From Candidatus Bathyarchaeota archaeon (GTDB lineage Archaea > Thermoproteota > Bathyarchaeia > 40CM-2-53-6): a DNA stretch of 64,000 bases. Shown one piece after another: positions 29,902 to 46,884 of the stretch (position 1 is the stretch's first letter; the number at the start of each line of letters is the position of its first letter). The stretch lies in the NCBI GenBank assembly GCA_963733055.1, contig CAVTBR010000001.1, forward strand, positions 1,216,001 to 1,280,000, written 5' to 3'. The notes below the pieces were generated by a model. It had not been told where the DNA came from. It saw nothing but the letters and a program-made list of their open reading frames with translations, and ran no database searches. The position numbers and the translations under genes are program-made.

Positions 29902-31032
29902 TTATGGGTTGGAGGGTGGAACGGTCTGTGGATCGTGTGTGCGTTCGAGTGTCAGTAAGTCTTTCTTTCTTTTTTCACCCCAACGGTAACCTCGCAGATC
30001 GCCATTCTTTCCAACCACCCTATGGCATGGTATAACAAGGGAGACGGGGTTCGTTGCGCAAGCCTTTGCCACAGCCCTCGCGGCGTTGGGTTCGCCCAAT
30101 TCGGCTGCGATTTGGCCGTATGTGATGGTGCTGCCGTAGGGTATCGATTGGATCTCCTTCCAGACTCTGCGTTGGAAGGTGCTTGCTTGGATGTCGAGGG
30201 GTAGGTTGAGGTGCGTTTGTTGGCCGGTAAAATAATTCATGATCGCAGTGACCCATTTCTGAAGTCCCGAGTTTGTGCGGTAGAGGTCGGCTAGTGGATA
30301 TTCTTTGGATAGTGCAGATTCGACCACGGCGTCCGTGTCCCCCATGAAGACGGCACAGACCCCTTTCGGTGTCGCCGCGACTAGGAGGCGTCCCAAGGGG
30401 CAGTTCACGATTGAGTAAGCAACCCGCAACCCTTTGGCACCCCGGCGAAATGTTCCGGCGCTCATGCCGAATTGATTCGAATTTCCGTAGAACCGACTCC
30501 TCGAACTAAACCCGGCACCGTAGAGTGCTTTCGTTACTGTTTGCCCGTTCTTCAGCAAGAATTTCATCTTCGCGAGTCGGCGGGTTTGGATGTATTCGCG
30601 AGGAGAGAGGCCGACCGCTTGCTTGAACGTTCTCTGAAGATGGTACGGACTAACTCCAGACTGAACGCTGAGGCTTGAGAGTGTCAGCTTGCGATCCAAG
30701 TTGGCTTCAATGTACTTACAAACACGATCGACCACCCCAATTCCAGGATGCGATTCGTTGTCTGTCGGGTTGCATCTGTGGCAGGGACGGAATCCAGATT
30801 GTTCCGCTTCGGCGGGTGCAAAGAAGAAGACCACCTTATCCCAACTGGGACGTTTGGCAGGGCATGATGGTTTGCAGTAGATGCCAGTCGACCGAACCGC
30901 GAAAACGAAACTACCATCGCAGCTTTTGTCCCTGGCTAGGGCAGCTGCCCACATTTGAGAGCGCGTTTGCAGACTCTCTTGAATTGATGGGATCAGTTGC
31001 GGTTCGACCTCGTTCGGGTTGATGTTTGACAT
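29902..31032 (-). CDS. ada: Bifunctional Ada: Zn-binding methylphosphotriester domain, AraC HTH and O6-methylguanine methyltransferase
   Basis: STGIYCKPSC, GFRPCHRC, SPYHLQRTFK, GFSSRSRFY, NPVSLVIPCHRV. Confidence 0.93.
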   Translation of the reverse strand: MSNINPNEVEPQLIPSIQESLQTRSQMWAAALARDKSCDGSFVFAVRSTGIYCKPSCPAKRPSWDKVVFFFAPAEAEQSGFRPCHRCNPTDNESHPGIGVVDRVCKYIEANLDRKLTLSSLSVQSGVSPYHLQRTFKQAVGLSPREYIQTRRLAKMKFLLKNGQTVTKALYGAGFSSRSRFYGNSNQFGMSAGTFRRGAKGLRVAYSIVNCPLGRLLVAATPKGVCAVFMGDTDAVVESALSKEYPLADLYRTNSGLQKWVTAIMNYFTGQQTHLNLPLDIQASTFQRRVWKEIQSIPYGSTITYGQIAAELGEPNAARAVAKACATNPVSLVIPCHRVVGKNGDLRGYRWGEKRKKDLLTLERTHDPQTVPPSNP

Positions 31033-31646: not shown

Positions 31647-31754
31647 CTTGCATCTCTCTACATAGTCCGATCTTCTCAACTCGAATAAGTGTGTGTGTCG
31701 GCCTTTGATACTATTAGTGGTGAACACAAAACTCATGTTGTTTTCTCAATTTTG

Positions 31755-31782: not shown

Positions 31783-31865
31783 CGTGTCAAGCTCACGTAT
31801 CGATGGCACGTGAGCGACCGGAATTCTTAACCGTCAATTTCAACGGAGCTTGGCTAGGTCTTGAG

Positions 31866-32648
31866 TTGTCCACAGACAGCCGTTTTACCATTCCTTTGCT
31901 CGATAAGCTGATCCCGGACGGAATCGAGGCCGGAACCGTATTCAACGTTGAATTTGACCCGGACTCTCAGTGGTTAGCTGTTGCCACAACGATTGGGGCT
32001 AGGTACCTTCAAACCGGAGGACGAGTAGGATATGTGTCCGCGATGAGGCCGCCAGAAGCGGTCAAGAAAGATTTAGCGAAATTGGACATCGACGTCTCCG
32101 CGGCCATAGCCGAACGGCGTCTTAACGTGGACGATTGGTATACTGCAACTCTCACGGGAGGTCGGATTACCACCGAGCAGGAAAAGACAGGTTTGTTGGA
32201 GCCGATTGATGGAGGTACTCGTGTGCGGTCTATAAAAGTCGCTGACTTGAGCGTTGAATGGCTTAGATTGTCAAAGGAAGGTCCACGGCCGTTTGACGTA
32301 ATTGAAACTTGGCCGCCGGGGGCCTTGACGATCTTCGACTCTCTTACTGAGGTAACGCGATTTAATGAAGAAAATTCCTACTTGGAATACGCAATTACTC
32401 GAGGCTGGACGAATGAGCGTAAAGCGAAAAGAATTCGGATCGGTGGAGTTGCTCGCGGTGTTCAGGCAGAGTCATTCTATAAGCGACTCGAAGGCGCGAG
32501 CGATGGAATCATAGACCTCCGAGTGATGGAACGCGATGATGAAGCGAAAAACTTCCTCCGGGTTAGGAGCCTGAAAGGCCAGCCACATGACGCCCGCTGG
32601 CATGAGATAGAACTCAAACCAAACGGGGAAACAATGCTGGTCAGCTAG
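31866..32648 (+). CDS. KaiC/RAD55-like protein with substituted Walker A (paralog 1)
   Basis: IPLLDKLIPDG, VEFDPDSQW in place of GxPGxGKT, IFDSL, DGIIDL, RVRSLKG..HD.RW; likely TTG start 31866. Confidence 0.82.
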   Translation: MSTDSRFTIPLLDKLIPDGIEAGTVFNVEFDPDSQWLAVATTIGARYLQTGGRVGYVSAMRPPEAVKKDLAKLDIDVSAAIAERRLNVDDWYTATLTGGRITTEQEKTGLLEPIDGGTRVRSIKVADLSVEWLRLSKEGPRPFDVIETWPPGALTIFDSLTEVTRFNEENSYLEYAITRGWTNERKAKRIRIGGVARGVQAESFYKRLEGASDGIIDLRVMERDDEAKNFLRVRSLKGQPHDARWHEIELKPNGETMLVS

Positions 32649-32655
32649 GCTCTTG

Positions 32656-32687
32656 GTGTGTGTGCGCACCATTAGACCCACACACAC
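32656..32687 (+). repeat. Dispersed ~30-bp hairpin repeat, copy 2
   Basis: GTGTGTGTG-CGCACCATTAGACC-CACACACAC, 9-bp inverted arms. Confidence 0.75.
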
Positions 32688-32699
32688 AAAACTAACTGG

Positions 32700-32927
32700 A
32701 TGCTGATCTCACTCGAAAACAAGGATCTGGTGAAACTGCCACCAAAACTTACCTTACTTTGTGCCGAATGCAACGCCCCGTTCGAGAAGATTGGCTGGAT
32801 TATTGGGACAAGAGCCGGTATCGGAGGTATCCCCGGCTACGCTTGGTACTACGTCAAGTGTCCCAACTGTGGCAAACGGCACTGGAACAAACTCATTCAC
32901 CTGGAAATTGGCAAACGGCCACAATGA
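32700..32927 (+). CDS. Small zinc-ribbon protein
   Basis: CAEC and YVKCPNCGKRHWN. Confidence 0.65.
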   Translation: MLISLENKDLVKLPPKLTLLCAECNAPFEKIGWIIGTRAGIGGIPGYAWYYVKCPNCGKRHWNKLIHLEIGKRPQ

Positions 32928-33160
32928 ATGCTGAGAATGCCAAGGTCCTCCGGGTTGAGGACATCTGACACGGTGTCACCGTGAGATAAGAGAGGAAAGA
33001 CCCGCTGGAAGGGTTGAGTGAATTGGTTTCTCGCGATCACGTGATGCATGAATGATTCATTCATTCTGTTTATCACCGGCCGCGACGTTTCGTCGGTCGT
33101 AAGGATGTGTGAGAAGAGTTGTACTCGCAACCGTTGAAAAGAGCTAGGAGAGTGAGTGGA

Positions 33161-34567
33161 ATGTTTGAACGCAGGACTGCGGTTGTGGTTCTTGCCGCCC
33201 TCATCATAGTGGGTCTGCTGATAGGTACAGTGGGCACTTGGATTTACTTTGCGAACCCTGCTTCAAGCAATAACAGCCTCCTCAGTTCAACTTCATTTTC
33301 AATCTCATCCACGGCATCGCAGGAAATTGCATGTTCCAACGTCGCCCAATATGACGAGAGCATACCCCCCGCTTACCAGTCTATGTACACTACGTTGAGC
33401 CAGATTTTGGACGACTTCAACCAGACCGTAAGCGGAACCCCGCCGACGGCAAGCCATGGAGTAATCTATGCTACTGAATTGCTTCCGGCAGATTCGAACA
33501 TAGGCGAAAGGCTCCTCGCGCCGCAGGTGATGCAAGGCGTTGTCAACTTTCTAAACGGAATCCAGAAACTAGGCGTTGAGGGCGTCACAATCGACGTATC
33601 CTACCCGATCCTGGTTCCGTCGTTCCCGAACTACACTCAGTACCTGAATTTCTACGAGAACGTTGTCGAGCAGGTCCGAGCTAGAGGAATGAAGATAGAC
33701 ATAGAGTCGGAGACTCCCCTACTGGTTGGGTACCCTGGTCTCTCACTGGGTTCTGTGAACTACGCGAACCTGAGTTACGACAACTATGTGAGTGAAGATA
33801 GGACAATGATTCAAACAGTGATAAGCGACCTACACCCCGACTACCTGAACATAGGAACCGAAACCGACACGTTACAAATACTCCTCCCCTACTCAGAGAT
33901 CAGCACCCCCCAAGGATGGGGCACGTACATCAATTCCTTACTCACAGGATTGAACAAAGGTAGCACGAAAATTAATGTTGGAATCGGCACCTGGGATCCT
34001 ATCAGCTACCTATATGCTACACTCAACAATTCAGCAATAGATGCCATCGACATCCACATCTACCCAGTCTACGGCAACTATCTTTCAATTCTAACCCAGA
34101 TAGGCCAGCTCTCCCGACAGTACGGCAAACCAATCGTTATCGATGAAATGTGGCTCCACAAGAGCACAATGAATGAAGGCCACAACTTCGCCACGGACGC
34201 GGGAATCTCAGCCCGAAACATGTACGCTTTCTGGGCTCCCCTCGACGAGAAATTCTTGAAGGTCATGGCGACGTACTCGCAAGTCTACAATGTTGCCTTC
34301 ATATCGCCCTTCGAATCCACGTACTTCTTCGCGTACCTGAACTACACCTCTAGCTCGGCCAGCGTGCCATACTATGAAGCGAGACAGGTGTCATCCCGAG
34401 CCGCCGCCTACAACCTCGCAAACGGCCTCATATCTCCCCTAGGCTGCTACTACCAAAGCATGATCAAGAACCTGACACCGCTTAGCATCTCATCTTTCGC
34501 AACCGAGACCATGCTTAGCTCCGCTGTACAATGTGAAGTTCCGTCGATCCGATGCGAAAGACGGTAA
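33161..34567 (+). CDS. Membrane-anchored clan GH-A-like glycoside hydrolase (TIM barrel)
   Basis: N-terminal TM, Ser-rich linker, NIGTE (acid/base), IDIHIY, PIVIDE (nucleophile). Confidence 0.65.
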   Translation: MFERRTAVVVLAALIIVGLLIGTVGTWIYFANPASSNNSLLSSTSFSISSTASQEIACSNVAQYDESIPPAYQSMYTTLSQILDDFNQTVSGTPPTASHGVIYATELLPADSNIGERLLAPQVMQGVVNFLNGIQKLGVEGVTIDVSYPILVPSFPNYTQYLNFYENVVEQVRARGMKIDIESETPLLVGYPGLSLGSVNYANLSYDNYVSEDRTMIQTVISDLHPDYLNIGTETDTLQILLPYSEISTPQGWGTYINSLLTGLNKGSTKINVGIGTWDPISYLYATLNNSAIDAIDIHIYPVYGNYLSILTQIGQLSRQYGKPIVIDEMWLHKSTMNEGHNFATDAGISARNMYAFWAPLDEKFLKVMATYSQVYNVAFISPFESTYFFAYLNYTSSSASVPYYEARQVSSRAAAYNLANGLISPLGCYYQSMIKNLTPLSISSFATETMLSSAVQCEVPSIRCERR

Positions 34568-34581
34568 GCTTGCAGGAGGCC

Positions 34582-34607
34582 GTGTGCGCACCATCAGACC
34601 CACACAC
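34582..34607 (+). repeat. Dispersed hairpin repeat, copy 3
   Basis: GTGTGCGCACCATCAGACCCACACAC, 25/26 identical to copy 2. Confidence 0.8.
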
Positions 34608-34623
34608 CTATTCAGTCCTGGAT

Positions 34624-34824
34624 TCAGCGTTCGATCTTGAAACCGATCCTCACGACTGCCTGGAATTGACTCACTTTGTTTTCCTTGATGGTTCCCCTGA
34701 ACTGGGTTGCTTCGAACCATTGCATTTGCTTGACGGTCTTCCCTGCTTCCTCAACGGCATTTCTAACTGCGTTCGCAAAGCTCTCATTTGATTCACCAAT
34801 AACCTCGATAATCTTCCAAACCAA
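34624..34824 (-). CDS. Dodecin (flavin-binding protein)
   Basis: MVWKIIEVIGES.ESFANAV.NAV..A.KT...WFE..RG.I....FQ....IGF; GGAGGTGA SD before TTG 34824. Confidence 0.9.
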   Translation of the reverse strand: MVWKIIEVIGESNESFANAVRNAVEEAGKTVKQMQWFEATQFRGTIKENKVSQFQAVVRIGFKIER

Positions 34825-34877
34825 ATCGCTCACCTCCCCAAACCAAACACTTGCATGATGGTTCAAAACTACTATTT

Positions 34878-34909
34878 GTGTGTGTTTGGTTCGGCTGGCG
34901 CTCACACAC
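34878..34909 (-). repeat. Dispersed hairpin repeat, copy 4 (inverted)
   Basis: Reverse complement GTGTGTGAGCGCCAGCCGAACCAAACACACAC resembles copies 2 and 3. Confidence 0.6.
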
Positions 34910-34997
34910 TAAAGTGAAGAGAGAGAATCCAACCTAACAGCTAATACTGTATTCTCGGAACAGATTTCGAAGAAATCTTAGGAGTGAATTATCCAAA

Positions 34998-35966
34998 ATG
35001 CAGGGCATTCTTTACCTCTCTCGTAAGGACGTTGAGGTTCTTGATTTCAGGATGATAGACGTAATCGCTGCCGTGGAGGAAGCCTTCAAAGAGAGAGGGA
35101 CAGGAGGGGCGGAAATGCCTCCCAAGCCTGGAGTTCACCCTCCTCATGATGCTTTCATCCATGCAATGCCAGCTTACCTTCCGGGTATGTCGGCTGTTGG
35201 AGTGAAATGGGTAAGCGGGTACCCGGAGAACTTCAAACAGGGACTGCCTTACATCTCGGGGTTGATAATTCTGAACGATCCGAAGACGGGTTTGCCGATT
35301 TCTGTGATGGATGCAACGTGGATAACCGCTAAGCGCACCGGAGCAGCCACAGCTTTGGCCGCCAAGTATCTTGCGAGACCAGAATCGAAGATTGTCGGAA
35401 TCATTGGTTGCGGAGTTCAGGGACGGAGCAACCTGGAAGCGCTCGAGGCGCTAATGAAACTTGAAGAGGTCAGAGCCCACGATACTTCATCCGCAAACCT
35501 TCACCGGTACGTCGAAGAGATGACGACGAAATTCAGCATTAAAGTGAAACCGGTTAACAGTCCCCGAGAAGCCGTCGAGGGGTCAGATATTATTGTGACC
35601 GCTGGGCCAATCTTGAAGCACCCAAGTCCAATCATTGAGAAGTCTTGGCTGAAGGCTGGGGTATTCGCATCTCCTGTAGACTTCGATTCTTACTGGAAGC
35701 CTGAAGCTATGCGGACGATGGATAAATTCTACACCGACGATATCCAGCAGCTGGAGTACTATAGATCGACAGGATACTTCCAAAACCTTCCCAGTGTCTA
35801 CGCGGAATTGGGGGAAGTAGTGGCTGGTCGCAAAGCCGGAAGAGAAAGTGCGGACGAGCGGATTATGTCGATGAATCTGGGTGTCGCAATTGAGGACGTT
35901 GCGGTCGCGGCGCAGATTTACCGAGAGGCAAGGAGAAAAGGAGTAGGGAAAGAGCTGTCCCTGTAA
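34998..35966 (+). CDS. Ornithine cyclodeaminase/mu-crystallin family (archaeal alanine dehydrogenase-like)
   Basis: MPPKP, AMPAY, VKWVS, TAKRTGA, IGCGVQG, GVAIED. Confidence 0.9.
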   Translation: MQGILYLSRKDVEVLDFRMIDVIAAVEEAFKERGTGGAEMPPKPGVHPPHDAFIHAMPAYLPGMSAVGVKWVSGYPENFKQGLPYISGLIILNDPKTGLPISVMDATWITAKRTGAATALAAKYLARPESKIVGIIGCGVQGRSNLEALEALMKLEEVRAHDTSSANLHRYVEEMTTKFSIKVKPVNSPREAVEGSDIIVTAGPILKHPSPIIEKSWLKAGVFASPVDFDSYWKPEAMRTMDKFYTDDIQQLEYYRSTGYFQNLPSVYAELGEVVAGRKAGRESADERIMSMNLGVAIEDVAVAAQIYREARRKGVGKELSL

Positions 35967-35979
35967 TGGTCTTGCGAGT

Positions 35980-36609
35980 TCAACCTACCGTCAATATTGT
36001 CTGTGCAAAGTCTCCCTGGTTCCCCGTGACCTGAACAACATACGAGCCGGGCAGAACATTTCCGACAATGAAACCACCATAAGCGGTCCCGCCTTGGACG
36101 ACGCACGCAGCCGTACCCGGTAGGATTGGGTTCGGAGAAGAGGGACTGGAGAGTTGGCAGGTTGTATCCGTTGGGAGTAGGCCAGTGGCTTGAATCGAGA
36201 CTCTAGATCCGGCCTGAAGGCTAACGGGGTTGCTCATGCCAGACTGGCTGGTGCTTCCACCTACTTGGATAATGGCTTGCGCGAAGTCCCCATCATTTCC
36301 TGTGACTTGAATCACGTACGAGCCGGGTAAGACGTTTCCAACGATGAAACCACCGTCAGGCGCGCCGGTTCCGACTTGAACGACACAAGCTGAGTTAATG
36401 AAGAGTGAGTTTGACGAAGGGCTTGAAACATTGCAAGTCGTATCAGTTGGTAGGAAGCCCGTGCCGCTGAATGACACCTCGTGGTTCGAGCCGCCGCTTA
36501 ACGCGATCACAGGTTCAGATTGAACGGACAGGAGTAGAGTGCTAGCTGCGGAGATCAGAAGGGCACACACTAGGATCGTTCCGATGAGTCTCAACGGTAA
36601 CCCATCCAT
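35980..36609 (-). CDS. Secreted protein with two tandem ~75-aa Ig-like repeats
   Basis: Signal/TM segment, then TG(F/L)LPTDTTC..SSPSS...ACVVQ...GGFIVGNVLPGSYV.QVTGN.GDFAQ twice. Confidence 0.75.
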   Translation of the reverse strand: MDGLPLRLIGTILVCALLISAASTLLLSVQSEPVIALSGGSNHEVSFSGTGFLPTDTTCNVSSPSSNSLFINSACVVQVGTGAPDGGFIVGNVLPGSYVIQVTGNDGDFAQAIIQVGGSTSQSGMSNPVSLQAGSRVSIQATGLLPTDTTCQLSSPSSPNPILPGTAACVVQGGTAYGGFIVGNVLPGSYVVQVTGNQGDFAQTILTVG

Positions 36610-36681
36610 TCTCCTATCATGGAATTATTGTTTGTGATAGGGAGGCATAACTGAAATCATGATATGAGCGTCGTCTAGTGA

Positions 36682-37635
36682 TTAGGATGGACGAATGCCT
36701 TCTGTTCTTTTCAGAACGCGGAGTGCGGTAAGAGTGATCCATTTGCTCGGCTTTCCCTCTACTTCCAACGCAAATGGTTTAGGCCGTTTTCTTAAACGAT
36801 AGCTCGCACCAACGCCTAGGTCGGGGTGGATGGCGTCGAGGGCCCATCTCCCGTCAGGCCTGAGCTTGTTCTGTAAGATTTGTAGGGCTGGTTTCAAGCG
36901 TCGGTCGTCTGCGTATCCGAGACCGGTTATGATATCTAAACCGACGAGTAGGTCGTAGTAGTAGTGGACCGGGTAGTGGAACCTGAGCCAAGGCGGGTAG
37001 CTATGCCCCTCTCTGAACAGTTTCCGCTCTAAGTAGAATTCCGCACCTCGCTCAGCAGAGCGTTTGATTCCTCGGGTACGCCGATTCCTAGGCAAGGCTG
37101 CGAAAGCTGCAAGGGCTTCCCAGCAGTCAAGAGTTCCTCTGGACGATTCAAAACAGTGCCACCCTCCGTCTTCTTTTTGATCTTCAACCAGTCTATCAAA
37201 TAATCTTCTCACTCTAGGATCGTCTTCGTATCCAAAACGGGTCAGCATCCGAGCCGTGTTGCCTACAATGCATACTTCATCGTTGAAAATATTCTCCGCG
37301 GAAGGTAATGGAAGCCATTGCTTGAAGAATAAATCGGCAGCCTTTCTGACCCATTTGTTTTCCTTAGTTAACCCCAGATCGGAGAGAATGAGTGCCATCC
37401 AGTTTGTCGCCCTGTACTTGGGCGTGTAGAGATTCTTACCTGACTCCCAGAACCCGCCAGCATTCTGCGCTTTGAGGATTTGATACACCCAGCCGAGTTT
37501 CGAAATATTGGAATGAGTCCTCCGAACTTCGTGGTTGTCTTTTGAATAGTCCAGTAAGTCCAGGAGCGTATAGTATCGGACGGATGGCTGATTAGGTTCC
37601 AACAGCCAATTCAAGACTTCTTGACCCGGTTTCAT
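36682..37635 (-). CDS. Prenyltransferase/squalene-cyclase-like alpha-barrel protein
   Basis: QxxxGxW repeats (QNAGGFW, QKEDGGW, RPDGRW), YP..YYYDLL, G.PSKWIT. Confidence 0.75.
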   Translation of the reverse strand: MKPGQEVLNWLLEPNQPSVRYYTLLDLLDYSKDNHEVRRTHSNISKLGWVYQILKAQNAGGFWESGKNLYTPKYRATNWMALILSDLGLTKENKWVRKAADLFFKQWLPLPSAENIFNDEVCIVGNTARMLTRFGYEDDPRVRRLFDRLVEDQKEDGGWHCFESSRGTLDCWEALAAFAALPRNRRTRGIKRSAERGAEFYLERKLFREGHSYPPWLRFHYPVHYYYDLLVGLDIITGLGYADDRRLKPALQILQNKLRPDGRWALDAIHPDLGVGASYRLRKRPKPFALEVEGKPSKWITLTALRVLKRTEGIRPS

Positions 37636-37783
37636 CAGTTAATCAGCTAGAATTCGTTTTGACGATACTTAAGCCGGATGATGACCCGTGATCCCCGTAC
37701 GTGCCTTTATTCTAGGCTATTGGGCGACGCAGCCATTTACTAGAGGTTATTTTCCGGGGCATACAAGAGCCGTCTGAGTAACA

Positions 37784-38338
37784 ATGGCTGTCTGGAACCT
37801 TGTGCTAAGCGGATACCCGGCGTCGGGGAAGTCTGTCCTAGCCAGACGGCTTGTTTCTGAAAACCCGGAATTTGTGCGCCTCAACGTAGACGATTTGAGG
37901 AAGATGTACTTCGGAGCCAGCGAACCCAAGGACGATGAGTTCGTTTACCACACAATAGCCACACTACGCGACTCAATACTTAGGAAACGGCGGAGCGTGG
38001 TGATTGACTCTACCGCCCCCCGAAACTCCACACGACATATGCTTCTTAGCACTAAAGTTTCAGGCGTCACAAGATTATTGGTCGTGATGATTGTCGGAAA
38101 GAACGAATTAGAAGTTCGAAACCGCCAACGTGGGATGGAGGGAGCCGTAGCGGCATGGGATAAGGTCTGGGAGAACCCAGTAGGACACGTGGCTATCGTG
38201 AATTTCAGAAACAACTCCCTAGCCGAATTCGAAACAAGCTACTACATTCTAACCGAGCTCCTAGCCAGTAAGGTTCATCCATTCAAACGCAAATTCCTCA
38301 AACACATCTACCCAAGAATCCTAAGGTCAACGGGTTGA
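37784..38338 (+). CDS. AAA_33-type P-loop kinase
   Basis: LSGYPASGKS, VDDLR, VVIDST, R..R lid. Confidence 0.8.
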   Translation: MAVWNLVLSGYPASGKSVLARRLVSENPEFVRLNVDDLRKMYFGASEPKDDEFVYHTIATLRDSILRKRRSVVIDSTAPRNSTRHMLLSTKVSGVTRLLVVMIVGKNELEVRNRQRGMEGAVAAWDKVWENPVGHVAIVNFRNNSLAEFETSYYILTELLASKVHPFKRKFLKHIYPRILRSTG

Positions 38339-38389
38339 CCTTGTGTGCGCGTGGAATACCTACAACTGGTTGATGCCCCAGTTTGAGCA

Positions 38390-39100
38390 TTAACCCAATT
38401 TATTTGCTTTCAGGAAAAGCGTGATGGCCGTGACGAAACTTAGAATCTTTGACGTGTCATTGAGCATTATGAACATCAAGTTGGAAGGGTATGAGAAACC
38501 GAAGAAGGCCCACACCGCGAATACAAAGAACATTCCTGCCAGCGAAAAAAGCGTGTATTTTGACACCTGAGTTAACGGCGATAATGTGAGAAGCGAGAAC
38601 GTCGAAATCTCAACGAGAAACAGGGGTAAGAAGAAGAGCAGCCGGTAAAGGGTTGGAGCAGGAGGAATCGGCGGGTATGTTCTGCTCATGACAATTAAGT
38701 CAAATGGGAGTTCAAATATCATCGGCGCCGCCGCCATGCCAACGAAGGCGCTCCCCACCGCAACCTTCACCCCGTGACTTCTACCCAGATACGCGATGAA
38801 CGTGAGCAGCCCAGAAATTTCCGTAACTGGGGTAATCGGGTTTGTAGGTGAAGTACTCAGCAAATGCTGTTGGCTTAATTGCACGGCATAGGTGACGATG
38901 GCAACGAGAAACGTTACCAAAGAAAGAATCCAGATTAGTATCAAGAAACCCCCAGCCGTCTTTCCAGGCCTCGTGATCTTGACTGGAGCAGTCAACCTCC
39001 TTCCAAGATACGTGAGCAAGACTGCAACGGCAAGAAGCATAACGGCCAAGAAGACTGCTTTACTGCCCAGGTATGGGGTCCACGTGCCGTATTGGGTCAA
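38390..39100 (-). CDS. Hypothetical multi-pass membrane protein
   Basis: ~7 TM segments, PMIFELPFDLIVM. Confidence 0.75.
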   Translation of the reverse strand: MTQYGTWTPYLGSKAVFLAVMLLAVAVLLTYLGRRLTAPVKITRPGKTAGGFLILIWILSLVTFLVAIVTYAVQLSQQHLLSTSPTNPITPVTEISGLLTFIAYLGRSHGVKVAVGSAFVGMAAAPMIFELPFDLIVMSRTYPPIPPAPTLYRLLFFLPLFLVEISTFSLLTLSPLTQVSKYTLFSLAGMFFVFAVWAFFGFSYPSNLMFIMLNDTSKILSFVTAITLFLKANKLG

Positions 39101-39334
39101 GACTCGACATCTATCCTCTCAAGCGAGGGATTCCTTTCCGTTGCTATTATGCTGACTTGCCGAAAACCCGATTGACTCATCCGACTGCACTGGCATCACT
39201 CAACGGTCTTTTGCGCAAAACAGGACTTGAACCGCAGGGTGTAGGTCATTAGCAAATGAGTGTACACACTACGGAAATCGTCTCAACATCTTATTAGCAT
39301 CCCAACCCGTTGTCGTTGATGGGTTAGTAGGGGT

Positions 39335-40165
39335 ATGCGGAGCCGTTTCATCTTATTCCTAATGCTTCTAGCACTAGTTTGCCTGGTTCTTTCACCCTCA
39401 CAGGTAGCACACGCGACCACGACCATCACGCATGACAGCTCCGGATCTAATGACTGCGGGTCCTGCTCGACCCTGTCTTGGCCTATGACTGTGGGATCAG
39501 GTGCTAACGGCATCCTTCTTGTAGGCGTATCTTTGGAAGGGAGCTCATGCCACCCATTCCCAATTTGCACCGCTAACACCGTCACATATGGTGCGTCTTC
39601 GTTAACTTTAATCGGCCGGAATTTTGAAGAAAACGCCGTGAGTGAAATATGGTTTCTTCAACCCCCTACCGCGGGTACAGCCACAGTAACGGTCACCGTG
39701 AACGGTACCGCTGATTTCATGGTGGCAGGGTCGGTTTCGTTCTTCGGCGTTTCCGGATTTCATGATTTCACTCCCGGCCAGGGCCAGAGCACGAATCCGT
39801 CAGTAACGGTGAACGCCAACATGGGAGATGTGGTGTTTGATTGCGTCGTAACATTCACGGGCGAGGGCCATTATGGCAGTCTCGTTTGGAATAACCCACA
39901 ATCCCCTCAGTGGGAAATCGGTTTGGGTGGCGAGGTTAGCCAATTTGATGGGGGAGGAAGCTACCAACCCGCCGATCCGACAGTAACCAACGGTTGGCAC
40001 GCGACCACTCCCGGAAACATAGCGGACTGGGTAGACGTGGGGCTTGCACTGAGCCCAGTGAGTGCTCCGCCGATTCCGGAATATCCGCTTGGATTACCGC
40101 TACTCGCAATCTTCCTGATCGTAGGTTACGCAGTGATTCGACGCAACACCGCGCTGAGGAACTAG
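39335..40165 (+). CDS. Secreted surface protein with PEF-CTERM-like sorting tail
   Basis: Signal peptide, Thr/Gly-rich beta domain, C-terminal PIPEYP + TM + RR. Confidence 0.75.
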   Translation: MRSRFILFLMLLALVCLVLSPSQVAHATTTITHDSSGSNDCGSCSTLSWPMTVGSGANGILLVGVSLEGSSCHPFPICTANTVTYGASSLTLIGRNFEENAVSEIWFLQPPTAGTATVTVTVNGTADFMVAGSVSFFGVSGFHDFTPGQGQSTNPSVTVNANMGDVVFDCVVTFTGEGHYGSLVWNNPQSPQWEIGLGGEVSQFDGGGSYQPADPTVTNGWHATTPGNIADWVDVGLALSPVSAPPIPEYPLGLPLLAIFLIVGYAVIRRNTALRN

Positions 40166-40270
40166 GAAAGAGAAGTTTCTGCTGGTTATTTCCTGAATAT
40201 TCGAGAGTAGATTTCGCGATTCGAGACCGAGTAGCCAATGGCTTGGTTGCGGGAGGATGCCATTTTGGGG

Positions 40271-40296
40271 ATAGTCCTTCCTGTGTGGGGGTATAG
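40271..40296 (-). repeat. Direct repeat upstream of KaiC-like paralog 2 (dispersed repeat family)
   Basis: ATAGTCCTTCCTGTGTGGGGGTATAG, 24/26 identical to 41121-41146. Confidence 0.8.
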
Positions 40297-40392
40297 AGGT
40301 GTGGTGCGTGTGAGGCAAATGATTAGTCTCTCCTCAAGCTGAAGTTGATAAGGCAGATTTCAGTAAGATTTCCCGCCGAGTCGAAATTCTAG

Positions 40393-41124
40393 TTGCGCGC
40401 CGCCCTATCGATACCGATCCTGAAGCAAATGGTTCCAGGCGGTTTCCAATACGGACAGATTCTCATGGTTGTGTATGAGCCAGACTCGATCTGGTACGAC
40501 ACATCACTGACGATTACCGCTCTAGCGTTGAAGGAAGGAACAAGAGTCGAGTACCATACTTACGAGCACATTCCGGCCGAGGTTAGGTCATCTCTTTCGA
40601 AGCTAGGAGTGGAATTAAAGAAGCTTGAAGGGGAGGACAGACTGAGAATCCATGATAGCTACACCGGCCAAACAGGATTAGGCCAATCTGAAGCACCGAC
40701 AAAAAGCAAGGTTCCGATTCAACCTCTGAAACTCTCTGACTCCAGTATAGAGTTCGCGCAACACATCAAAGCAGGAATACCTGAACGAGACAGGAGACTC
40801 CTGCACATTGATGATAATATGGGCATTCTTCTTCAGTATAACGATGAGAAAACTGTCATCAACTTCGGGCGAACTCGAATGGTGCCCTGGGTACGAGCTC
40901 GTGAGACAACATATCTCGTTTCTATTCTAAGTGGAATCGCATCGGATGCTTTCTACAAACAGATCGGGTCGTTCTTTGACGGAATAATTGACTTCAAAGG
41001 TGAAGAGAAAGAAGGTCAAATCAAGCAATACTGTAGAATTAGAAGCATACGAGGTCAATCTTGCGATTCGCGATGGAGAAGCCTGGGAGTCTTGGATAAC
41101 GGGGAAGTTACACTATCGGTATAG
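40393..41124 (+). CDS. KaiC/RAD55-like protein with substituted Walker A (paralog 2)
   Basis: IPILKQMVPGG, VVYEPDSIW, HIDDN, DGIIDF, RIRSIRG..CDSRW. Confidence 0.82.
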   Translation: MRAALSIPILKQMVPGGFQYGQILMVVYEPDSIWYDTSLTITALALKEGTRVEYHTYEHIPAEVRSSLSKLGVELKKLEGEDRLRIHDSYTGQTGLGQSEAPTKSKVPIQPLKLSDSSIEFAQHIKAGIPERDRRLLHIDDNMGILLQYNDEKTVINFGRTRMVPWVRARETTYLVSILSGIASDAFYKQIGSFFDGIIDFKGEEKEGQIKQYCRIRSIRGQSCDSRWRSLGVLDNGEVTLSV

Positions 41125-41146
41125 TCCTTCCTGTGTATGGGTATAG
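41121..41146 (-). repeat. Direct repeat overlapping the stop codon of KaiC-like paralog 2
   Basis: ATAGTCCTTCCTGTGTATGGGTATAG. Confidence 0.8.
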
Positions 41147-41228
41147 TTGTGCGTGCATCCACATAATTTCAGTGAGGCGGCGCCAAGATTCCACATATCC
41201 TTAATATTGGTGATAGTCAACTCGACGT

Positions 41229-41642
41229 TTGGCGAGAGTGTTGGACCAAACTATAGTTCATTTTGAAATTCCCGCAAACAACCCCGAGAAGCTTTCTGAG
41301 TTCTACAAGAGCCTCTTCGGGTGGAAGTTTGAGAAGATGCCGATGCCTGGAGGGGCAGGGGGGGATTATTGGACGATTGAAACCAGACCCGGAACGGCCG
41401 GTAACATGGAAGAATCAATGAAAAGACCGGGTATTAATGGCGGGATGATGAAGAAAATGATGCCGAATCACGCGGTAACAAATTATGTGATGGTAGAGTC
41501 GGTAGACGAGTTTAGCAAGAAACTGGAGAAACTCGGCGGCAAGATAATCGTTCCGAAGACGCCGATTCCAGAGATGGGAGCCTTTGCCGTCGGCCTAGAT
41601 CCGGAAGGCAACCCTGTAGGGTTATTCGAGGGCAGCCAATAA
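41229..41642 (+). CDS. VOC/glyoxalase family protein
   Basis: VHFEIPA, FY..LFGW, GINGGM, DPEGN. Confidence 0.92.
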   Translation: MARVLDQTIVHFEIPANNPEKLSEFYKSLFGWKFEKMPMPGGAGGDYWTIETRPGTAGNMEESMKRPGINGGMMKKMMPNHAVTNYVMVESVDEFSKKLEKLGGKIIVPKTPIPEMGAFAVGLDPEGNPVGLFEGSQ

Positions 41643-41804
41643 CCGATATTTCTTCAACAGCATTTCCCCCATTACACGGGGGGATCAGCCTCACCTTTTC
41701 TGTTGTAGGCATCAGAATAACTCCGCACGCCTTCTCGGTGGAGAAAGTGCCCATCTGGCCCACGTGCTTAAGTCAACTCGAATGATGGTTAGGTTGGATA
41801 TGCA

Positions 41805-42335
41805 ATGTCAGCGGAGAATAAGCAGGCTATCAAGATCAAACCCAGTCTCGTACCGTTCACCTGGAAAGGCGCATTAGTGATTCTGCTGGGCCTTGTACTC
41901 TCTGTCGGGCTGTTCATTTTCCAATCGCTGATGCCGTTCCTCTTCGGTTTCGGCTTCCTGCTGCCCTTCGTCGGCCTTGGCTTAGTTGGTTTAGGATTCT
42001 TCATGGTCACGATTGGTTTGGTCCGTAGGAACATGTATACATATCAACTGACTGACGCTGACGTAATCATTCAGAAGCAGTTTCTTGGCCGTAGCGTTCG
42101 ACGCATCCCGCTCGCTTCAATAAGTGATGTGGAAGTCTCACAAAGTTTCGTGGGACGCCTTGCGGGGTACGGCAACATTGTTCCCATATCTAAGAGCGGC
42201 TACGGCCTCGTTCGAGGTATGGAGCGAACTGAGAATATCGTTGCCGAGATGACCAACGTCCCGAACCCAGACAAGGTAGCAAACCTAATCATGACTAGAA
42301 CCTCGGCTATGACAAGACTAGCGATCAATCAGTAG
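41805..42335 (+). CDS. Bacterial PH-domain (bPH_2) membrane protein
   Basis: Two TMs then Y.LTD, I.DVEVSQSFVGRLAGYGNI. Confidence 0.8.
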   Translation: MSAENKQAIKIKPSLVPFTWKGALVILLGLVLSVGLFIFQSLMPFLFGFGFLLPFVGLGLVGLGFFMVTIGLVRRNMYTYQLTDADVIIQKQFLGRSVRRIPLASISDVEVSQSFVGRLAGYGNIVPISKSGYGLVRGMERTENIVAEMTNVPNPDKVANLIMTRTSAMTRLAINQ

Positions 42336-42503
42336 TACCACTATACGCACGTGAAGAGAAAGCTAAGTGTTGGATTAGCCACTATGAACTTCGACCCACA
42401 TGCGATGACACTTGCGGTTTTTACGGCAACCTGAAATGAAACTTCACGCGATTATTCTATTACATTTGGATTAAGTAATTTATACGAGCAGCCCAAAGCG
42501 ATC

Positions 42504-42788
42504 ATGATCTTCATGACCGCCGTCGTCGAATTTGACAGTAGAATCCACGACCTGGTTGAACAGGAAAATCAGTGCGAAGTCCTGTTCAACGACATCAAGA
42601 ATGGTAACGGAGACAACTCTCTGCGCTACCTTGCTCTCAGGGATGCCTGTAAAGAATTGAGGAAGGGGATAGTTAGAAGCGCCCTGTCGGCAGGACTAAC
42701 GAGAGAGAGCATCAACATGAAGATCAAGGAAGCAAGAACCCAACCGACACCTGCTCCCTCAAAACAGTCGAAGAAGAATCAGCAGTAG
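42504..42788 (+). CDS. Hypothetical helical protein
   Basis: 94-aa ORF with TAATTTATA TATA-like element ~25 nt upstream. Confidence 0.6.
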   Translation: MIFMTAVVEFDSRIHDLVEQENQCEVLFNDIKNGNGDNSLRYLALRDACKELRKGIVRSALSAGLTRESINMKIKEARTQPTPAPSKQSKKNQQ

Positions 42789-42842
42789 ACACTTGAGCTG
42801 AGATAGAAAAAAGGGACTGCGAACTACACTCGAGACCTAAGC

Positions 42843-43133
42843 CTATCTGGCTTTTTGAAGGCCTTTCTTAACGTCATCGACTGTCATCGCAGGATGGAAC
42901 TCCACTTTCGCACCGATACCTTGGAACAGCGGTTCAGCTAGAACAGGAATCATATCAGCGCTTGCAAAATCCACTACGAATAATGCGGTCCTCTCGCCGC
43001 CTTCTTCGTAGAAGTATACGGCTTCAGGCTTTACCTTAGCTACGTAATTCTCTAAAGCCTTGAATCCGTTCGGATCCTGAAGCATTTTATTTCCCGCTTC
43101 TGTCGGAATCTTCGCACGAATTATGAATCTCGT
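42843..43133 (-). CDS. Small ferredoxin-like fold protein (DUF3303-like) with apparent ACG start
   Basis: (M)RFIIRAKIPTEAGNKMLQDP...KPEAVYF...GERT..PVLAEPLF...AKVEFHPAMT.DD; GAGGTGA SD 6 nt before ACG 43133. Confidence 0.78.
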   Translation of the reverse strand, partial: TRFIIRAKIPTEAGNKMLQDPNGFKALENYVAKVKPEAVYFYEEGGERTALFVVDFASADMIPVLAEPLFQGIGAKVEFHPAMTVDDVKKGLQKAR

Positions 43134-43269
43134 CTTCTCTCACCTCAACCATGGTTACCAAATGTTTCTCGATAATTAGCCTTCCCTCGACGACTCGACC
43201 TACATGGATTGATGGCGATATGGGCATCGTACACACAAAGTACAAATCTAGTGGGACAGAGCCTTTCCT

Positions 43270-43980
43270 GTGTTCTTGTTGCCGAGGATGCCTATAATCG
43301 AAGACTTGACCAAGGGATCTGTTCCCCCCGGATCCAACATTCTCGTTGAATTTGACCCGGCCTCGCAGTGGCTCAACGCCGCGATAACGATCGCGGCAGG
43401 CTGGGGAAAGAGTGGGGGGAGCATAAGTTACATTGCTAACTCCCAACCGCCAGACGACATTCGTTCGCAACTTCGAAGATTGGGCCTTAATGTTGAGGAG
43501 CTCGAAGGGAACGATCGGTTATGGATTACCGACCTATACAGCGCCTCGATTGGGCAGAAATCTAAAGAAAAGTACGGCGTTGATTCGCTGAAGGCCGCGG
43601 ACCTAAGCATTTACATAGGAAGAGAGGCGATGGGTGACTCACCAGCCCCTGAGTTTCTAGTGATATCGGATAACAATTCAATTCTCGATAGATTCAACGC
43701 CGAGAAAAATTGGGTAGAACTCTACTTAACCCGACCCATTCCGATGGCAAAACCGAGACAAATCACTCAAATCATAGGGTTCATGGCCGGCATCCACAGC
43801 CCCTGGGCCTACAAGCAACTCGAAGCCGCGGTTGACGGCGTCATCGATGTCAAGATTGATGACGTAAATGGGGAACGCAAGACATTCATTGGGATCCGAA
43901 ACATGCGGAACGTTGCCTTCGATTCGAGATGGCACGCAATGAAGGCCGGAGAAAACTTCGAAATCACACTCGAGAAGTAG
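43270..43980 (+). CDS. KaiC/RAD55-like protein with substituted Walker A (paralog 3)
   Basis: PIIEDLTKG, VEFDPASQW, ISDNN, DGVIDV, RNMRN..FDSRW. Confidence 0.82.
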   Translation: MFLLPRMPIIEDLTKGSVPPGSNILVEFDPASQWLNAAITIAAGWGKSGGSISYIANSQPPDDIRSQLRRLGLNVEELEGNDRLWITDLYSASIGQKSKEKYGVDSLKAADLSIYIGREAMGDSPAPEFLVISDNNSILDRFNAEKNWVELYLTRPIPMAKPRQITQIIGFMAGIHSPWAYKQLEAAVDGVIDVKIDDVNGERKTFIGIRNMRNVAFDSRWHAMKAGENFEITLEK

Positions 43981-44042
43981 ACGATCCACCATCGCCATCG
44001 TGTGTATCCTTATGATTCAGTAGAAGTTGAACGAGGAGTTTT

Positions 44043-44777
44043 TCAGTTCTTCTTCTTGGTAGGCTCCAAACTGACCGATAGATCTTCGCCCAAACGAAGA
44101 ATGTGTTTTGACGTGTCCACAGGTGCTCCTTTGAAGGCTCGGGCGCGTAGGATGTTTTCCATTTGGCCTTCGATCTCCTCTGTTCTCAGTTCAAAGACTC
44201 CGTCGGCGCTTGTCATCACTGATGTGTACAAGGCATCAGAATGTATTCCGCGGACAAACCCATCAATTACAATTCTTCCTTTAGTTACAAACCTGGAGAT
44301 CCATGTGCGATAGAACTTTAGGAAACTCTTCTCGTCAGAGGCCTCTACGACCTCGGAAACGTTGTCAAAAAGCCTAACGGTACCCGGCGTCCACTGGTCG
44401 AGAGACTTATTCGAGATTAGGCTAATGTCGGCTATGTTGAGGGACGGGAAGTGGTATTTTTCAGTGGATTGGCGCCCAGTTTTGAAGGTGAACGCGTCCG
44501 AGAGGACCAACCGCTCATCGGTCTCGAAAGCAGTAGCATCTAGACCTCTTGTTCGAAAATTCTCACGAATATCTGTTAATGGTCTTGAGGTGGATATGTA
44601 GAGCACCTCAGTTCCTTTACGAAGCATTTCGACTACCATATTCAAAATGAGCATCAACCATTGTGAATCCGCATCAAACAAGACCACAATCACCTGTCCA
44701 GCTTTCACAGGGCGGCGCAGCAGTTGTCCGATGACGGGCATTTCAACTAGCACCGTACTCTCAGCCTTGACTGTCAA
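44043..44777 (-). CDS. KaiC/RAD55-like protein with substituted Walker A (paralog 4)
   Basis: PVIGQLL, VLFDADSQW, LFDNV, DGVFEL, RARAFKG..VDT. Confidence 0.8.
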   Translation of the reverse strand: MTVKAESTVLVEMPVIGQLLRRPVKAGQVIVVLFDADSQWLMLILNMVVEMLRKGTEVLYISTSRPLTDIRENFRTRGLDATAFETDERLVLSDAFTFKTGRQSTEKYHFPSLNIADISLISNKSLDQWTPGTVRLFDNVSEVVEASDEKSFLKFYRTWISRFVTKGRIVIDGFVRGIHSDALYTSVMTSADGVFELRTEEIEGQMENILRARAFKGAPVDTSKHILRLGEDLSVSLEPTKKKN

Positions 44778-44811: not shown

Positions 44812-45618
44812 TTATTTGGCTAGTGGGGTGTATTGAGTAGAAGGTTTCGCTTTCGAATTTCCTAGAGACTCAGGGCTGTTATAGAGGAAGATCTTGCCAG
44901 CGATTGTCTCTCCTATCTTCGTAGCGTGGCTAGCGGATGGTACGTTGGATTCGGCAATCTCGTTGATCAGCGTGCGGACGTGCCTTGATTTCAGATAGAT
45001 GAGTCTTGCTTGGAAATTGTCTTTCATTACTCCCATTCTTCTGAATTGAGGCTCCACGTAGAGGCCGTGTGACCTTGCTATTTCGCCGACGATGGTCATC
45101 CACGCGATGCCCACGATTCTGTTTGCTATTCTGACTACGAAGCACTTGTCTCCGTTCTTGAGGGCGACTCCGACCCAGCGCCTGTTTGTTTCGGGTTGTG
45201 TAGACGCCATGAAGCGTTCTATTTCTTTCGCATCGTTGGCTATGCTCACATGATGTTTGAATCTGTGGTCTAAGGAAGCCCTGTCGACGTCCAACTGCCA
45301 GATGTTCCAAGCTTCCTTGGGGTGCTCTTCTACCCCGAGCTCTGAGAATATGTAACTGGAAGGCTTCAGCGTGTAGAACTGGTCGAATGCTTCCCTGGAT
45401 CTCGTGAAGATGGTACCTGTAGCCTCGTAGTTATCGTAAATGAACAGGCCATTCTTATCTCCCGCGGAGTTCTGAGAGATGAAAACTTCGCCTCCTGCTT
45501 CAAGAGCCTCTTTGGCCTCGTGACGGAGGATTGGGTCAAAGAACGACAGCCCTTTTGGCAAGCTACTGAGCTGCTCACCTAAGCTCTCTATCTTTGATAC
45601 CTGAACGATACTGGTCAT
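44812..45618 (-). CDS. GNAT-family acetyltransferase with N-terminal extension
   Basis: C-terminal LYVEPQFRRMGV acetyl-CoA motif and N.PS. Confidence 0.8.
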   Translation of the reverse strand: MTSIVQVSKIESLGEQLSSLPKGLSFFDPILRHEAKEALEAGGEVFISQNSAGDKNGLFIYDNYEATGTIFTRSREAFDQFYTLKPSSYIFSELGVEEHPKEAWNIWQLDVDRASLDHRFKHHVSIANDAKEIERFMASTQPETNRRWVGVALKNGDKCFVVRIANRIVGIAWMTIVGEIARSHGLYVEPQFRRMGVMKDNFQARLIYLKSRHVRTLINEIAESNVPSASHATKIGETIAGKIFLYNSPESLGNSKAKPSTQYTPLAK

Positions 45619-45631
45619 GAGCCTGTCGCCG

Positions 45632-46861
45632 CTACCAATCCAAGATCGTGAAGTTCTTGGTCAGGCTCTCTTCTCCGAGTATATTGCCTATGACAAGTTC
45701 AAGGCTGTTAGTGCTGCGATGAAGGTCGACAACCTCGTCGTCCTTCAGGGCATCCATAAGGATGTATTCGAACTGGGTCTTGCGGTCAGTAATGTGGCCG
45801 AACCTCCTAGTTCGTTCCCTTTCTATCTGCTCATAGGCATACATGAATTCGTACAGGGTTCTGTATATCTGATGTTCCATGTTCTCTTCGACGTTGAATT
45901 CGAGATTAGCCCTATCGTTCCCGCCGATCGTTATTGTTTGGAGTCCTTCCAAGTCCGCCCAAAAGATGGTGCCGTCGGGCGCCAACACTGCGTCCTTGTC
46001 GAGCCAAACGTCGTAGAAATCCAATCCACTGTACGTACCGTTGCCGTTGTCGCTCATCGATCTAACGAACAGGGTGAGGACTGCGATTCCACTCTTCACG
46101 AAGTTCTTCAAGAAATCCATTGCCTTGTCGTTGTTGTCTATGTTGAAGAAGTCGAAGAGCTCCCCCGTGTCGTCCCCGATAGTCCAATCCGAGTGGAAAT
46201 AGATTCTGATATTGGAAGGGATCAGCCTTGTTTCCTGAACCATCTCTTGCCTGAACCTCCTATACCAGTACACTTGGGTGACTTCGTCTTGGAGTGCCCT
46301 TGGCAACTTGACGATCTTCACCAAGGGGGCGATCCTGAACCCATGAATGGATGTGGTGCTGGCGTCTGACTTTTCGGTTGCTTTCATTGCAATGGACGCG
46401 AATTCAAGTCCCTGGGATCCATAGGGACATCCTCTTGACCATAGCTCACCGGTAAGATACCTTGGAAATTCCATCTCCTCGGCGTTCATGATCCTGCCCC
46501 TTAGGGCGCTGTTCTTGAGAAGGCTGCAGATCTCCGCCTTCTTGAAGAGTTGGCGGCTGAATGGGCTGGTTGTTGATCCTATTCCTTTGACGGAGAAGTA
46601 GAAATCGACGTCGTCGATGGTCACGTAGGGGTCCCTGCTTACGGCACTCCTGTTGTCGTCGATCAGGAGTTCCTTGCTTCCTACAGGATCCGTCACAGTG
46701 AATGGTTTCACGGTATCAGGGATGTATATCCTCTCGAATTCTGGCATTTCGAAACTTTTGAAGTACTTGTTAGTTATCGTCCCTGCTCCGTCGTATGCAC
46801 TTAGATTGATGGGCACTCCTCTGAGCTTGATGCGGCCGGGTTTGGCAATCTCTACGGTCAA
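45632..46861 (-). CDS. Uncharacterised protein with SelO/protein-kinase-like motifs
   Basis: SVKGIGSTTSPFSR and LDKDAVLAPDGTIFWADLE; likely TTG start 46861 (avoids 73-nt overlap). Confidence 0.6.
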   Translation of the reverse strand: MTVEIAKPGRIKLRGVPINLSAYDGAGTITNKYFKSFEMPEFERIYIPDTVKPFTVTDPVGSKELLIDDNRSAVSRDPYVTIDDVDFYFSVKGIGSTTSPFSRQLFKKAEICSLLKNSALRGRIMNAEEMEFPRYLTGELWSRGCPYGSQGLEFASIAMKATEKSDASTTSIHGFRIAPLVKIVKLPRALQDEVTQVYWYRRFRQEMVQETRLIPSNIRIYFHSDWTIGDDTGELFDFFNIDNNDKAMDFLKNFVKSGIAVLTLFVRSMSDNGNGTYSGLDFYDVWLDKDAVLAPDGTIFWADLEGLQTITIGGNDRANLEFNVEENMEHQIYRTLYEFMYAYEQIERERTRRFGHITDRKTQFEYILMDALKDDEVVDLHRSTNSLELVIGNILGEESLTKNFTILDW

Positions 46862-46884
46862 AGCTTCTTTCGCCCTTTCGAATG

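Follow-up and report, generated by a model that had tools for sequence, protein, structure and literature searches.

Four KaiC-like paralogs without a P-loop in a Bathyarchaeota genome, and the conserved loop that replaces it

What becomes of a KaiC-like domain when the loop that should hold ATP is replaced by a different one, and what could such a domain then be for? The question is raised by a stretch of 64,000 nucleotides from Candidatus Bathyarchaeota archaeon (assembly GCA_963733055.1, contig CAVTBR010000001.1, positions 1,216,001 to 1,280,000 of the forward strand), hereafter the window, in which four genes, designated paralogs A to D, encode single-domain KaiC-like proteins without a P-loop. 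With somewhat better than even odds, the four are long-separated paralogs, each from a subfamily of its own within an archaeal inactivated KaiC-like (iKaiC-type) family, and they most likely act as non-enzymatic signalling modules.

The former ATPase site of the four paralogs

Paralog A (31803..32648, + strand) comprises 281 amino acids counted from an ATG, within an open reading frame (ORF) that is open from a GTG at 31689. It carries an N-terminal extension of about 25 amino acids and is identical to the database protein P0001 (281 amino acids). Paralog B (40393..41124, + strand; 243 amino acids) and paralog C (43270..43980, + strand; 236 amino acids) lie downstream on the same strand, and paralog D (44043..44777, − strand; 244 amino acids) is arranged tail-to-tail with C. 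All four ORFs are intact. The proteins are assigned to an A-, a B-, a C- and a D-type subfamily, the last of the FxFDADSQW type; the C-type is the most expanded one in related Bathyarchaeia metagenome-assembled genomes (MAGs). They share 25–32% identity in pairwise BLASTP comparisons (E 4e-25 to 3e-42) and match the Pfam KaiC family PF06745 with 29.9 (A), 30.3 (B), 36.3 (C) and 34.0 (D) bits, narrowly above the gathering cut-off of 26.6, and lie far below all cut-offs of the curated NCBIfam KaiC and ArlH models. A hidden Markov model (HMM) built from the four proteins was run against all 381 six-frame ORFs of at least 60 amino acids in the window; it returned A–D alone, with no fifth copy.

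The Walker A motif GxxxxGK[ST] is absent from A–D, and its place is taken by (F/Y)(D/E)(P/A)xSxW(L/Y). In translation, the replacement loop reads VEFDPDSQW in A (31947..31973, + strand), VVYEPDSIW in B (40468..40494, + strand), VEFDPASQW in C (43345..43371, + strand) and VLFDADSQW in D (44658..44684, − strand). When the family profile is aligned with HMMER to archaeal KaiC-like ATPases of solved structure, the consensus fdPdSqWy falls on GGPGTGKT of PH0284, to which the loop of A is aligned as well, on GGTGTGKT of PH0186 and on GEPGTGKT of SSO2452. The loop thus lies on Walker A, with Trp in place of the Lys and Leu or Tyr in place of the Thr. ORFs, translations and alignments therefore agree with the initial annotation, made from the letters of the window, that four divergent KaiC-like paralogs carry these loops at the Walker A position. 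The catalytic acidic position after strand 2, which is EE in PH0284 and KaiC and D in the nearest active relatives, reads MR in A, EH in B, SQ in C and SR in D, so that the acid is lost in A, C and D. Judged by sequence, A–D are without the residues for canonical ATP binding and hydrolysis. Besides A–D, the RecA superfamily is represented in the window by a single gene, RadB/Rad51-like (5053-5757, + strand), with an intact GEAATGKT, which indicates that P-loops are otherwise ordinary in this genome.

Other parts of the site are retained. The Walker B Asp column holds the same residue in A–D (the consensus Asp is found in 72% of 50 family members), and the DG(I/V)(I/F)(D/E) motif is found in all four. 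The C-terminal basic motif follows the form RxRxx(K/R)G in A (RVRSLKG), B (RIRSIRG) and D (RARAFKG). In C it reads GIRNMRN (43891..43911, + strand), with the first Arg and the final Gly absent; the statement of the initial annotation that all these motifs are kept is accordingly accurate for the first two and, for the basic motif, for three of the four proteins. The (K/R)G of the motif aligns to the KMRG Arg-finger region of PH0284 and KaiC-like proteins. At the trans-finger KxRG positions the Arg is kept as Lys or Arg, the Lys is replaced by Ser, Asn or Ala, and two extra Arg residues are found upstream.

The retained Walker B Asp and DG motif would suit a site that is still nucleotide-dependent, in which ATP, ADP or another nucleotide is bound by the non-canonical loop; the aromatic residue at the former Lys position, the Trp, could then stack on the base. 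Such a site is very unlikely, however: there is no Gly-rich loop and no Lys or Thr, a phosphate would face repulsion from the acidic side chains at positions 27 and 29 of the loop, and the catalytic acid is gone from A, C and D.

A large archaeal family with cyclase fusions

The loop is not peculiar to this genome. A word-indexed protein search gave at least 500 matches at E≤1e-3; among the best 120 of these, about half of which are D-like, the Ser and Trp of the loop are present in all 120 and the Asp in 119. An exhaustive search of 50%-identity representatives recovered 979 clusters at E≤1e-3, of which 370 reach E≤1e-10 and 104 reach E≤1e-30. A canonical P-loop is found in seven of the best 150 matches, each with an E value of 1.9e-25 or weaker. 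When 164 full-length sequences were filtered at <62% identity, 52 remained, four with a P-loop and 48 without, and SxW is kept in 42 of these 48 (the exceptions read AHW, SVF, SSY, SQS, AQR and THW). The Ser and Trp, described as invariant in the initial annotation, deserve that word among close relatives, the best 120 matches, but vary in six of the 48 non-redundant members. PF06745 matches 42 of 50 family members at E≤0.01, and the nearest Atlas cluster of C is 100% archaeal, with Bathyarchaeota as the commonest phylum (known for 16 members).

In a codon comparison, C and its 83%-identical orthologue from the related locus L023 show a ratio of nonsynonymous to synonymous substitution rates (dN/dS) of 0.12 at a dS of 0.68; more distant pairs are saturated (dS >2 or undefined), and the value is that of this pair alone. 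The low dN/dS, together with the retention of the loop across homologues, argues for selection and not decay, as the initial annotation had proposed. The weak scores against curated KaiC models are what non-functional remnants of KaiC genes might be expected to give, but intact ORFs, purifying selection, the same loop across the 104 clusters found at E≤1e-30 and a very confident structure model (see below) make decay extremely unlikely. The family is large, archaeal and under purifying selection.

Related genes were also collected as 26 contigs (loci). By their titles, 21 belong to Bathyarchaeia or Bathyarchaeota, one to Thermoplasmata and one to 'archaeon RBG_16_50_20'; the other three come from a MAG that bears the name Methylomirabilota. 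These loci were found by the loop pattern itself and are biased to A–C-like loops, with D-type contexts poorly sampled, so that counts drawn from them are lower bounds. At least 37 ORFs in the 26 loci match the family HMM, and clusters of paralogs recur, with four copies in L011, three in L023 and two in L021. SxW is present in 32 of 37 matching ORFs; the other five are three fragments without an N-terminus, one weak match and one canonical P-loop protein.

A quick maximum-likelihood tree was computed from 69 rows: the four window proteins, 47 non-redundant members, 13 domains of fusion proteins and five P-loop-bearing outgroup sequences. All 64 P-loop-less rows are split from the P-loop-bearing rows at a single branch with a Shimodaira–Hasegawa-like approximate likelihood ratio test (SH-aLRT) value of 96, the root being assumed and not inferred. 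Four separate starred clades are resolved, A (11 rows) with 99, B (31 rows) with 99, C with 99 and D with 97. A single loss of the P-loop, with old duplications after it, would fit this topology.

The nearest P-loop-bearing clade consists of the metagenomic proteins P0245, P0248, P0255 and P0266–P0269. These share with the family the motifs RPPxxVR, RLxxxDxY(S/T)W, GxHSxxFY, DGxxE and RxFR(I/V)xxxK...W. They differ from it in that GPPGxGK(T/S) is kept, and they are ordinary KaiC-domain proteins, with 64–109 bits on PF06745. One of them, P0245, has its active-looking KaiC domain fused to a sensor region of the XylR_N/V4R type.

A functional link is provided by domain fusions. A scan of 27 long family members found the class III adenylate/guanylate cyclase catalytic domain (PF00211) in 11, where it follows the KaiC-like domain in ten and precedes it in one; three of the 11 also contain TPR repeats, and two other long members contain an AAA domain. 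In the fusion proteins the loop is conserved along with the Walker B region (HxDDN), Glu145, Tyr181, the RxR and Trp221, and the Ser and Trp of the loop are retained in all 13 fusion proteins of the tree, bar one Ser-to-Val substitution. Eight longer homologues are 44–53% identical to B over 90–100% of its length; seven are cyclase fusions and one is an AAA fusion, and two of the eight are named 'class 3 adenylate cyclase' by a source. B corresponds, as a free-standing protein, to the N-terminal domain of archaeal proteins in which that domain is fused to class III cyclase or AAA+ parts. Two Atlas clusters in which KaiC and cyclase domains occur together, of 134 and 74 members, are 100% archaeal, most commonly Nitrososphaerota (phylum known for 25 and 28 members, respectively). 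These fusion partners of the B-type domain, namely class III cyclases, TPR repeats and AAA+ domains, support a role in signalling.

Predicted assembly and the role of the rebuilt site

The structure of C was modelled with AlphaFold2 from a 50-row alignment, with a predicted local distance difference test (pLDDT) value of 97.0 and a predicted template modelling (pTM) score of 0.93. A Foldseek comparison of the model with the PDB returned PH0284 (2dr3) first, with a template modelling (TM) score of 0.82 and an E value of 4.8e-17, followed by PH0186, KaiC, SSO2452 and FlaH; the TM scores to KaiC entries are 0.72–0.79. The predicted fold is that of KaiC/RecA. PH0284, PH0186 (2zts) and SSO2452 (2w0m) resemble the family in size, fold (TM 0.73–0.82), order of motifs and C-terminal basic/Arg-finger region, but possess the GxxGxGKT motif and the catalytic Glu that set them apart from the window proteins. 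ArlH/FlaH, matched structurally through 4yds, is likewise a single-domain KaiC-like protein and a regulatory, not a motor, ATPase. Unlike the family, however, it keeps Walker A and binds ATP (4yds is titled FlaH with ATP and Mg), and the NCBIfam ArlH/FlaH models give A–D only 12–20 bits against cut-offs of 194–215.

We further modelled a complex of three copies of C. The interaction scores (ipSAE) were 0.82, 0.79 and 0.82, and the best control reached 0.00; contact agreement between runs was at least 85% and partner pLDDT at least 89. The predicted interface is formed, in one copy, by residues 208–211, 213–214, 216 and 219–221 (the basic motif and SRW), 178–186 (the YKxLE helix) and 190–191 (the DG motif), and in the next copy by residues 30–33 and 35 (the new loop), 58, 93–95 and 135–141, with the basic motif of one subunit in modelled contact with the replacement loop of the adjoining one. 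The trimer model supports the canonical neighbour interface. Eleven of the 30 most conserved positions lie at this interface, compared with 49 of all 236 residues (Mann–Whitney p=0.002).

We assign a probability of roughly 0.55 to a reading of the model in which the rebuilt ATP site is a conserved inter-subunit site and ATP-independent assembly is the signal. On this reading the KaiC/RecA fold and the ring-type subunit interface are retained, and canonical ATP binding and hydrolysis are lost. The Gly-rich Walker A loop, with its Lys and Thr, has been exchanged for the acidic and aromatic loop (E)(F/Y)(D/E)(P/A)xSxW, onto which three elements of the neighbouring subunit would pack: its basic motif (RxRxxK/R), its YKxLE helix and its DG loop. 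The subunits would thereby be able to assemble without ATP, and the assembly state, possibly set by a ligand or a partner, would itself be the signal. Class III nucleotidyl cyclase catalytic domains work as dimers, and in the fused forms the B-type domain could control the cyclase by bringing catalytic domains together. The stand-alone copies of the present genome might act in trans on partners, or co-assemble with each other. The latter would recall Elp4/5/6 (the PAXNEB family), in which pseudo-ATPase paralogs with a RecA-like fold assemble into a hetero-hexameric ring. The analogy is one of mechanism only: there, too, several RecA-fold paralogs without canonical ATPase motifs are at hand that could co-assemble, but Elp4/5/6 are eukaryotic or linked to Elongator and show no sequence-level membership of the family, even though PAXNEB is among the Pfam labels of related Atlas clusters and is found on one of 50 family members. 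Switching by oligomerization, the role of the loop and the partners are what we infer from these data.

Several observations weigh against this reading. The mark used for the complex scores was reached in calibration by 20 of 30 proteins solved as pairs and by one of 23 solved as single chains, and these counts hold only roughly for C, since three copies and a custom alignment differ from the calibration set-up. The passing score may also reflect likeness to complexes of known structure, among which KaiC-like rings, such as the hexamers of KaiC and PH0284, are numerous. Conserved residues are only modestly enriched at the interface, and Trp34, the conserved aromatic residue of the loop, lies outside the confidently contacting residues. 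Arg208 and Trp221 are common to the nearest active relatives, which makes them features of the clade and not adaptations of the dead forms. All 13 fusion proteins of the tree fall in the B clade, and it is for this reason that we infer, and do not observe, the cyclase link of A, C and D. Gene context adds little: the window has no cyclase gene, and of the 26 related loci 25 have none either (L022 alone has one, in fused form), and a BLASTP comparison of all window ORFs at 28-50.5 kb with the ORFs of the 26 loci revealed no conserved neighbours that point to a partner, the sole recurrence beside family members being a gene for 80 amino acids, in two loci.

The same interface can be read in favour of mixed rings, as suggested in the initial annotation, in which the dead paralogs enter active KaiC-like hexamers as regulatory subunits and supply basic fingers in trans to the ATP site of a neighbour. 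The predicted interface is the canonical one, the (K/R)G aligned to the KaiC Arg-finger region is retained, and the nearest relatives are active-looking KaiC proteins with many scaffold motifs in common with the family. In locus L018 (3325-4800), moreover, a family member (+ strand) and a canonical P-loop KaiC-like gene with PGSGKST (− strand) stand tail-to-tail, 55 bp apart. This is, however, the only dead/active pairing seen, and a convergent one; no canonical KaiC gene is found in the 64-kb window; of the K-x-R pair of KaiC, the Lys has given way to Ser, Asn or Ala; and the fusions of the domain to cyclases imply no active KaiC partner. Mixed rings of this kind therefore appear unlikely.

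A possible, though clearly less favoured, alternative is that the rebuilt site is a new ligand pocket, also suggested in the initial annotation and put to the use proposed for MEDS domains, with the binding of a small molecule as the primary signal. Asp29, Ser32, Trp34, Asp88, Asp134, Glu145 and Tyr181, together with Arg residues contributed in trans, would line the pocket. The site is not relaxed but has conserved polar and aromatic residues of its own, the domain stands N-terminal to cyclases, which is the usual place of a sensor domain, and MEDS is listed as an iKaiC sensor domain in PMC5847659. The likeness to MEDS is weak: against the PF14417 cut-off of 29.8 bits, D scores 19.0 and A 11.5, B and C give no match, and eight of 50 family members match at E≤0.01, although some A-type orthologues bear a precomputed PF14417.13 label in the database. 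No gene context in the window or the related loci points to a ligand. Ligand binding is, besides, compatible with assembly as the signal and does not exclude it. A more far-reaching version, which we regard as rather unlikely, would make the rebuilt site the receptor for a small molecule such as a cyclic nucleotide or another second messenger: the domain would represent an undescribed sensor family that gates Nitrososphaerota class III cyclases in cis, and the expansion in Bathyarchaeia would consist of free-standing receptor or adaptor paralogs in mixed rings.

Gene neighbourhood and relation to known systems

The archaeal origin of the window is reflected in its marker genes, namely CDP-archaeol synthase, PCNA, GINS, both primase subunits, aIF2-alpha and AglB; it contains no tRNA genes, no Rfam matches and no archaellum genes. 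Unrelated genes lie between A and D, among them a DinB-like gene, ornithine cyclodeaminase, a glyoxalase-like gene, a bPH_2 membrane protein and secreted proteins. The recurrent 80-amino-acid gene (42843..43085, − strand) is divergent from C, and its membership in the feature is uncertain. Its homologues, 48–51% identical, are found near C-type genes in L023 (190 bp away) and L013 (530 bp away), and it matches no Pfam, NCBIfam or PADLOC family. Directly upstream of D, genes for a 441-amino-acid protein, with no Pfam or NCBIfam match, and for a 268-amino-acid GNAT-like protein occupy 44812-46957 (− strand). The two adjoin D on the same strand and may form an operon with it; neither has homologues in the 26 related loci. 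A scan of ten neighbour proteins against NCBIfam gave nothing useful. A role in anti-phage defence was considered and set aside, as PADLOC matches none of eight proteins (A–D and four neighbours) at E≤0.01.

Two other genes of the region are of note in themselves. A 376-amino-acid protein (29902-31032, − strand) combines an Ada Zn-binding domain, an AraC-type helix–turn–helix and both MGMT domains; this is a full-length Ada regulator of the bacterial style, encoded here by an archaeon, with a 60%-identical homologue in the Bathyarchaeia locus L014. A secreted-looking protein of 276 amino acids (39335-40165, + strand), without a Pfam match, ends in IPEYPLG, a hydrophobic stretch and basic residues, a C-terminus that we take to resemble an archaeosortase-type sorting signal.

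The three loci from the MAG titled Candidatus Methylomirabilota bacterium (L003, L007 and L017) carry genes for archaeal RadA, an RPA-like protein, a family B polymerase and Hef. In L007 and L017, archaeal RadA and Hef score above curated cut-offs; the contigs are read on this basis as mis-binned archaeal ones, and an occurrence of the family in bacteria was accordingly rejected.

Inactivated KaiC-like domains are not without precedent. Under the name 'iKaiC', inactivated KaiC-like ATPase domains of archaeal signal transduction, including MEDS (PF14417) and DUF835 (PF05763), have been described (Galperin, Makarova, Wolf & Koonin 2018, PMC5847659); that paper credits the term to Makarova, Galperin & Koonin 2017 and, citing Makarova et al. 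2017, presents KaiC-superfamily proteins as archaeal signalling hubs. The present family resembles iKaiC in its KaiC homology with a disrupted ATPase site, its archaeal distribution and, for the B-type only, its combination with signalling domains. It differs in its own conserved loop, (F/Y)(D/E)(P/A)xSxW, and in its partners, which are class III cyclases, TPR and AAA+ domains, whereas those named for iKaiC in PMC5847659 are REC and HalOD1; one supplement file of the paper that was searched contains no adenylate cyclase fusion. DUF7125 (PF23442.1, cut-off 29.1 bits) gives D 13.6 bits and matches none of 50 family members at E≤0.01. A precomputed PF23442.2 label is found on D and many of the matches, the threshold of this database label not being stated. 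Within the literature collection searched, no paper was found on DUF7125, nor one that joins KaiC, adenylate cyclase and Thaumarchaeota, and the matches listed for KaiC, adenylate cyclase and pseudo-ATPase include no relevant paper.

The initial annotation had spoken of a candidate undescribed signalling system. Signalling gains support from the B-type fusions, but 'undescribed system' is too strong, because inactivated KaiC signalling domains are already in print (PMC5847659), and no conserved partner genes accompany the paralogs in the 26 related loci. Measured against that paper, what appears to be new is a separate clade without a P-loop, marked by a conserved loop of its own and by cyclase fusions. 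As the concept of inactivated KaiC domains has been published, the advance would be a defined subfamily together with a proposed mechanism, and not a new kind of system.

To our knowledge, almost no archaeal KaiC-like protein has been studied. The family described here offers a clean case in which an ATPase site would have been rebuilt into a different conserved site and not merely lost. The question it poses is whether a cyclase can be switched by the Ser/Trp loop and the Arg residues supplied in trans, be it through control of assembly or through the binding of a ligand. Gene fusion ties the family to cyclic-nucleotide synthesis in soil archaea, the Nitrososphaerota and the relatives of the Bathyarchaeia.

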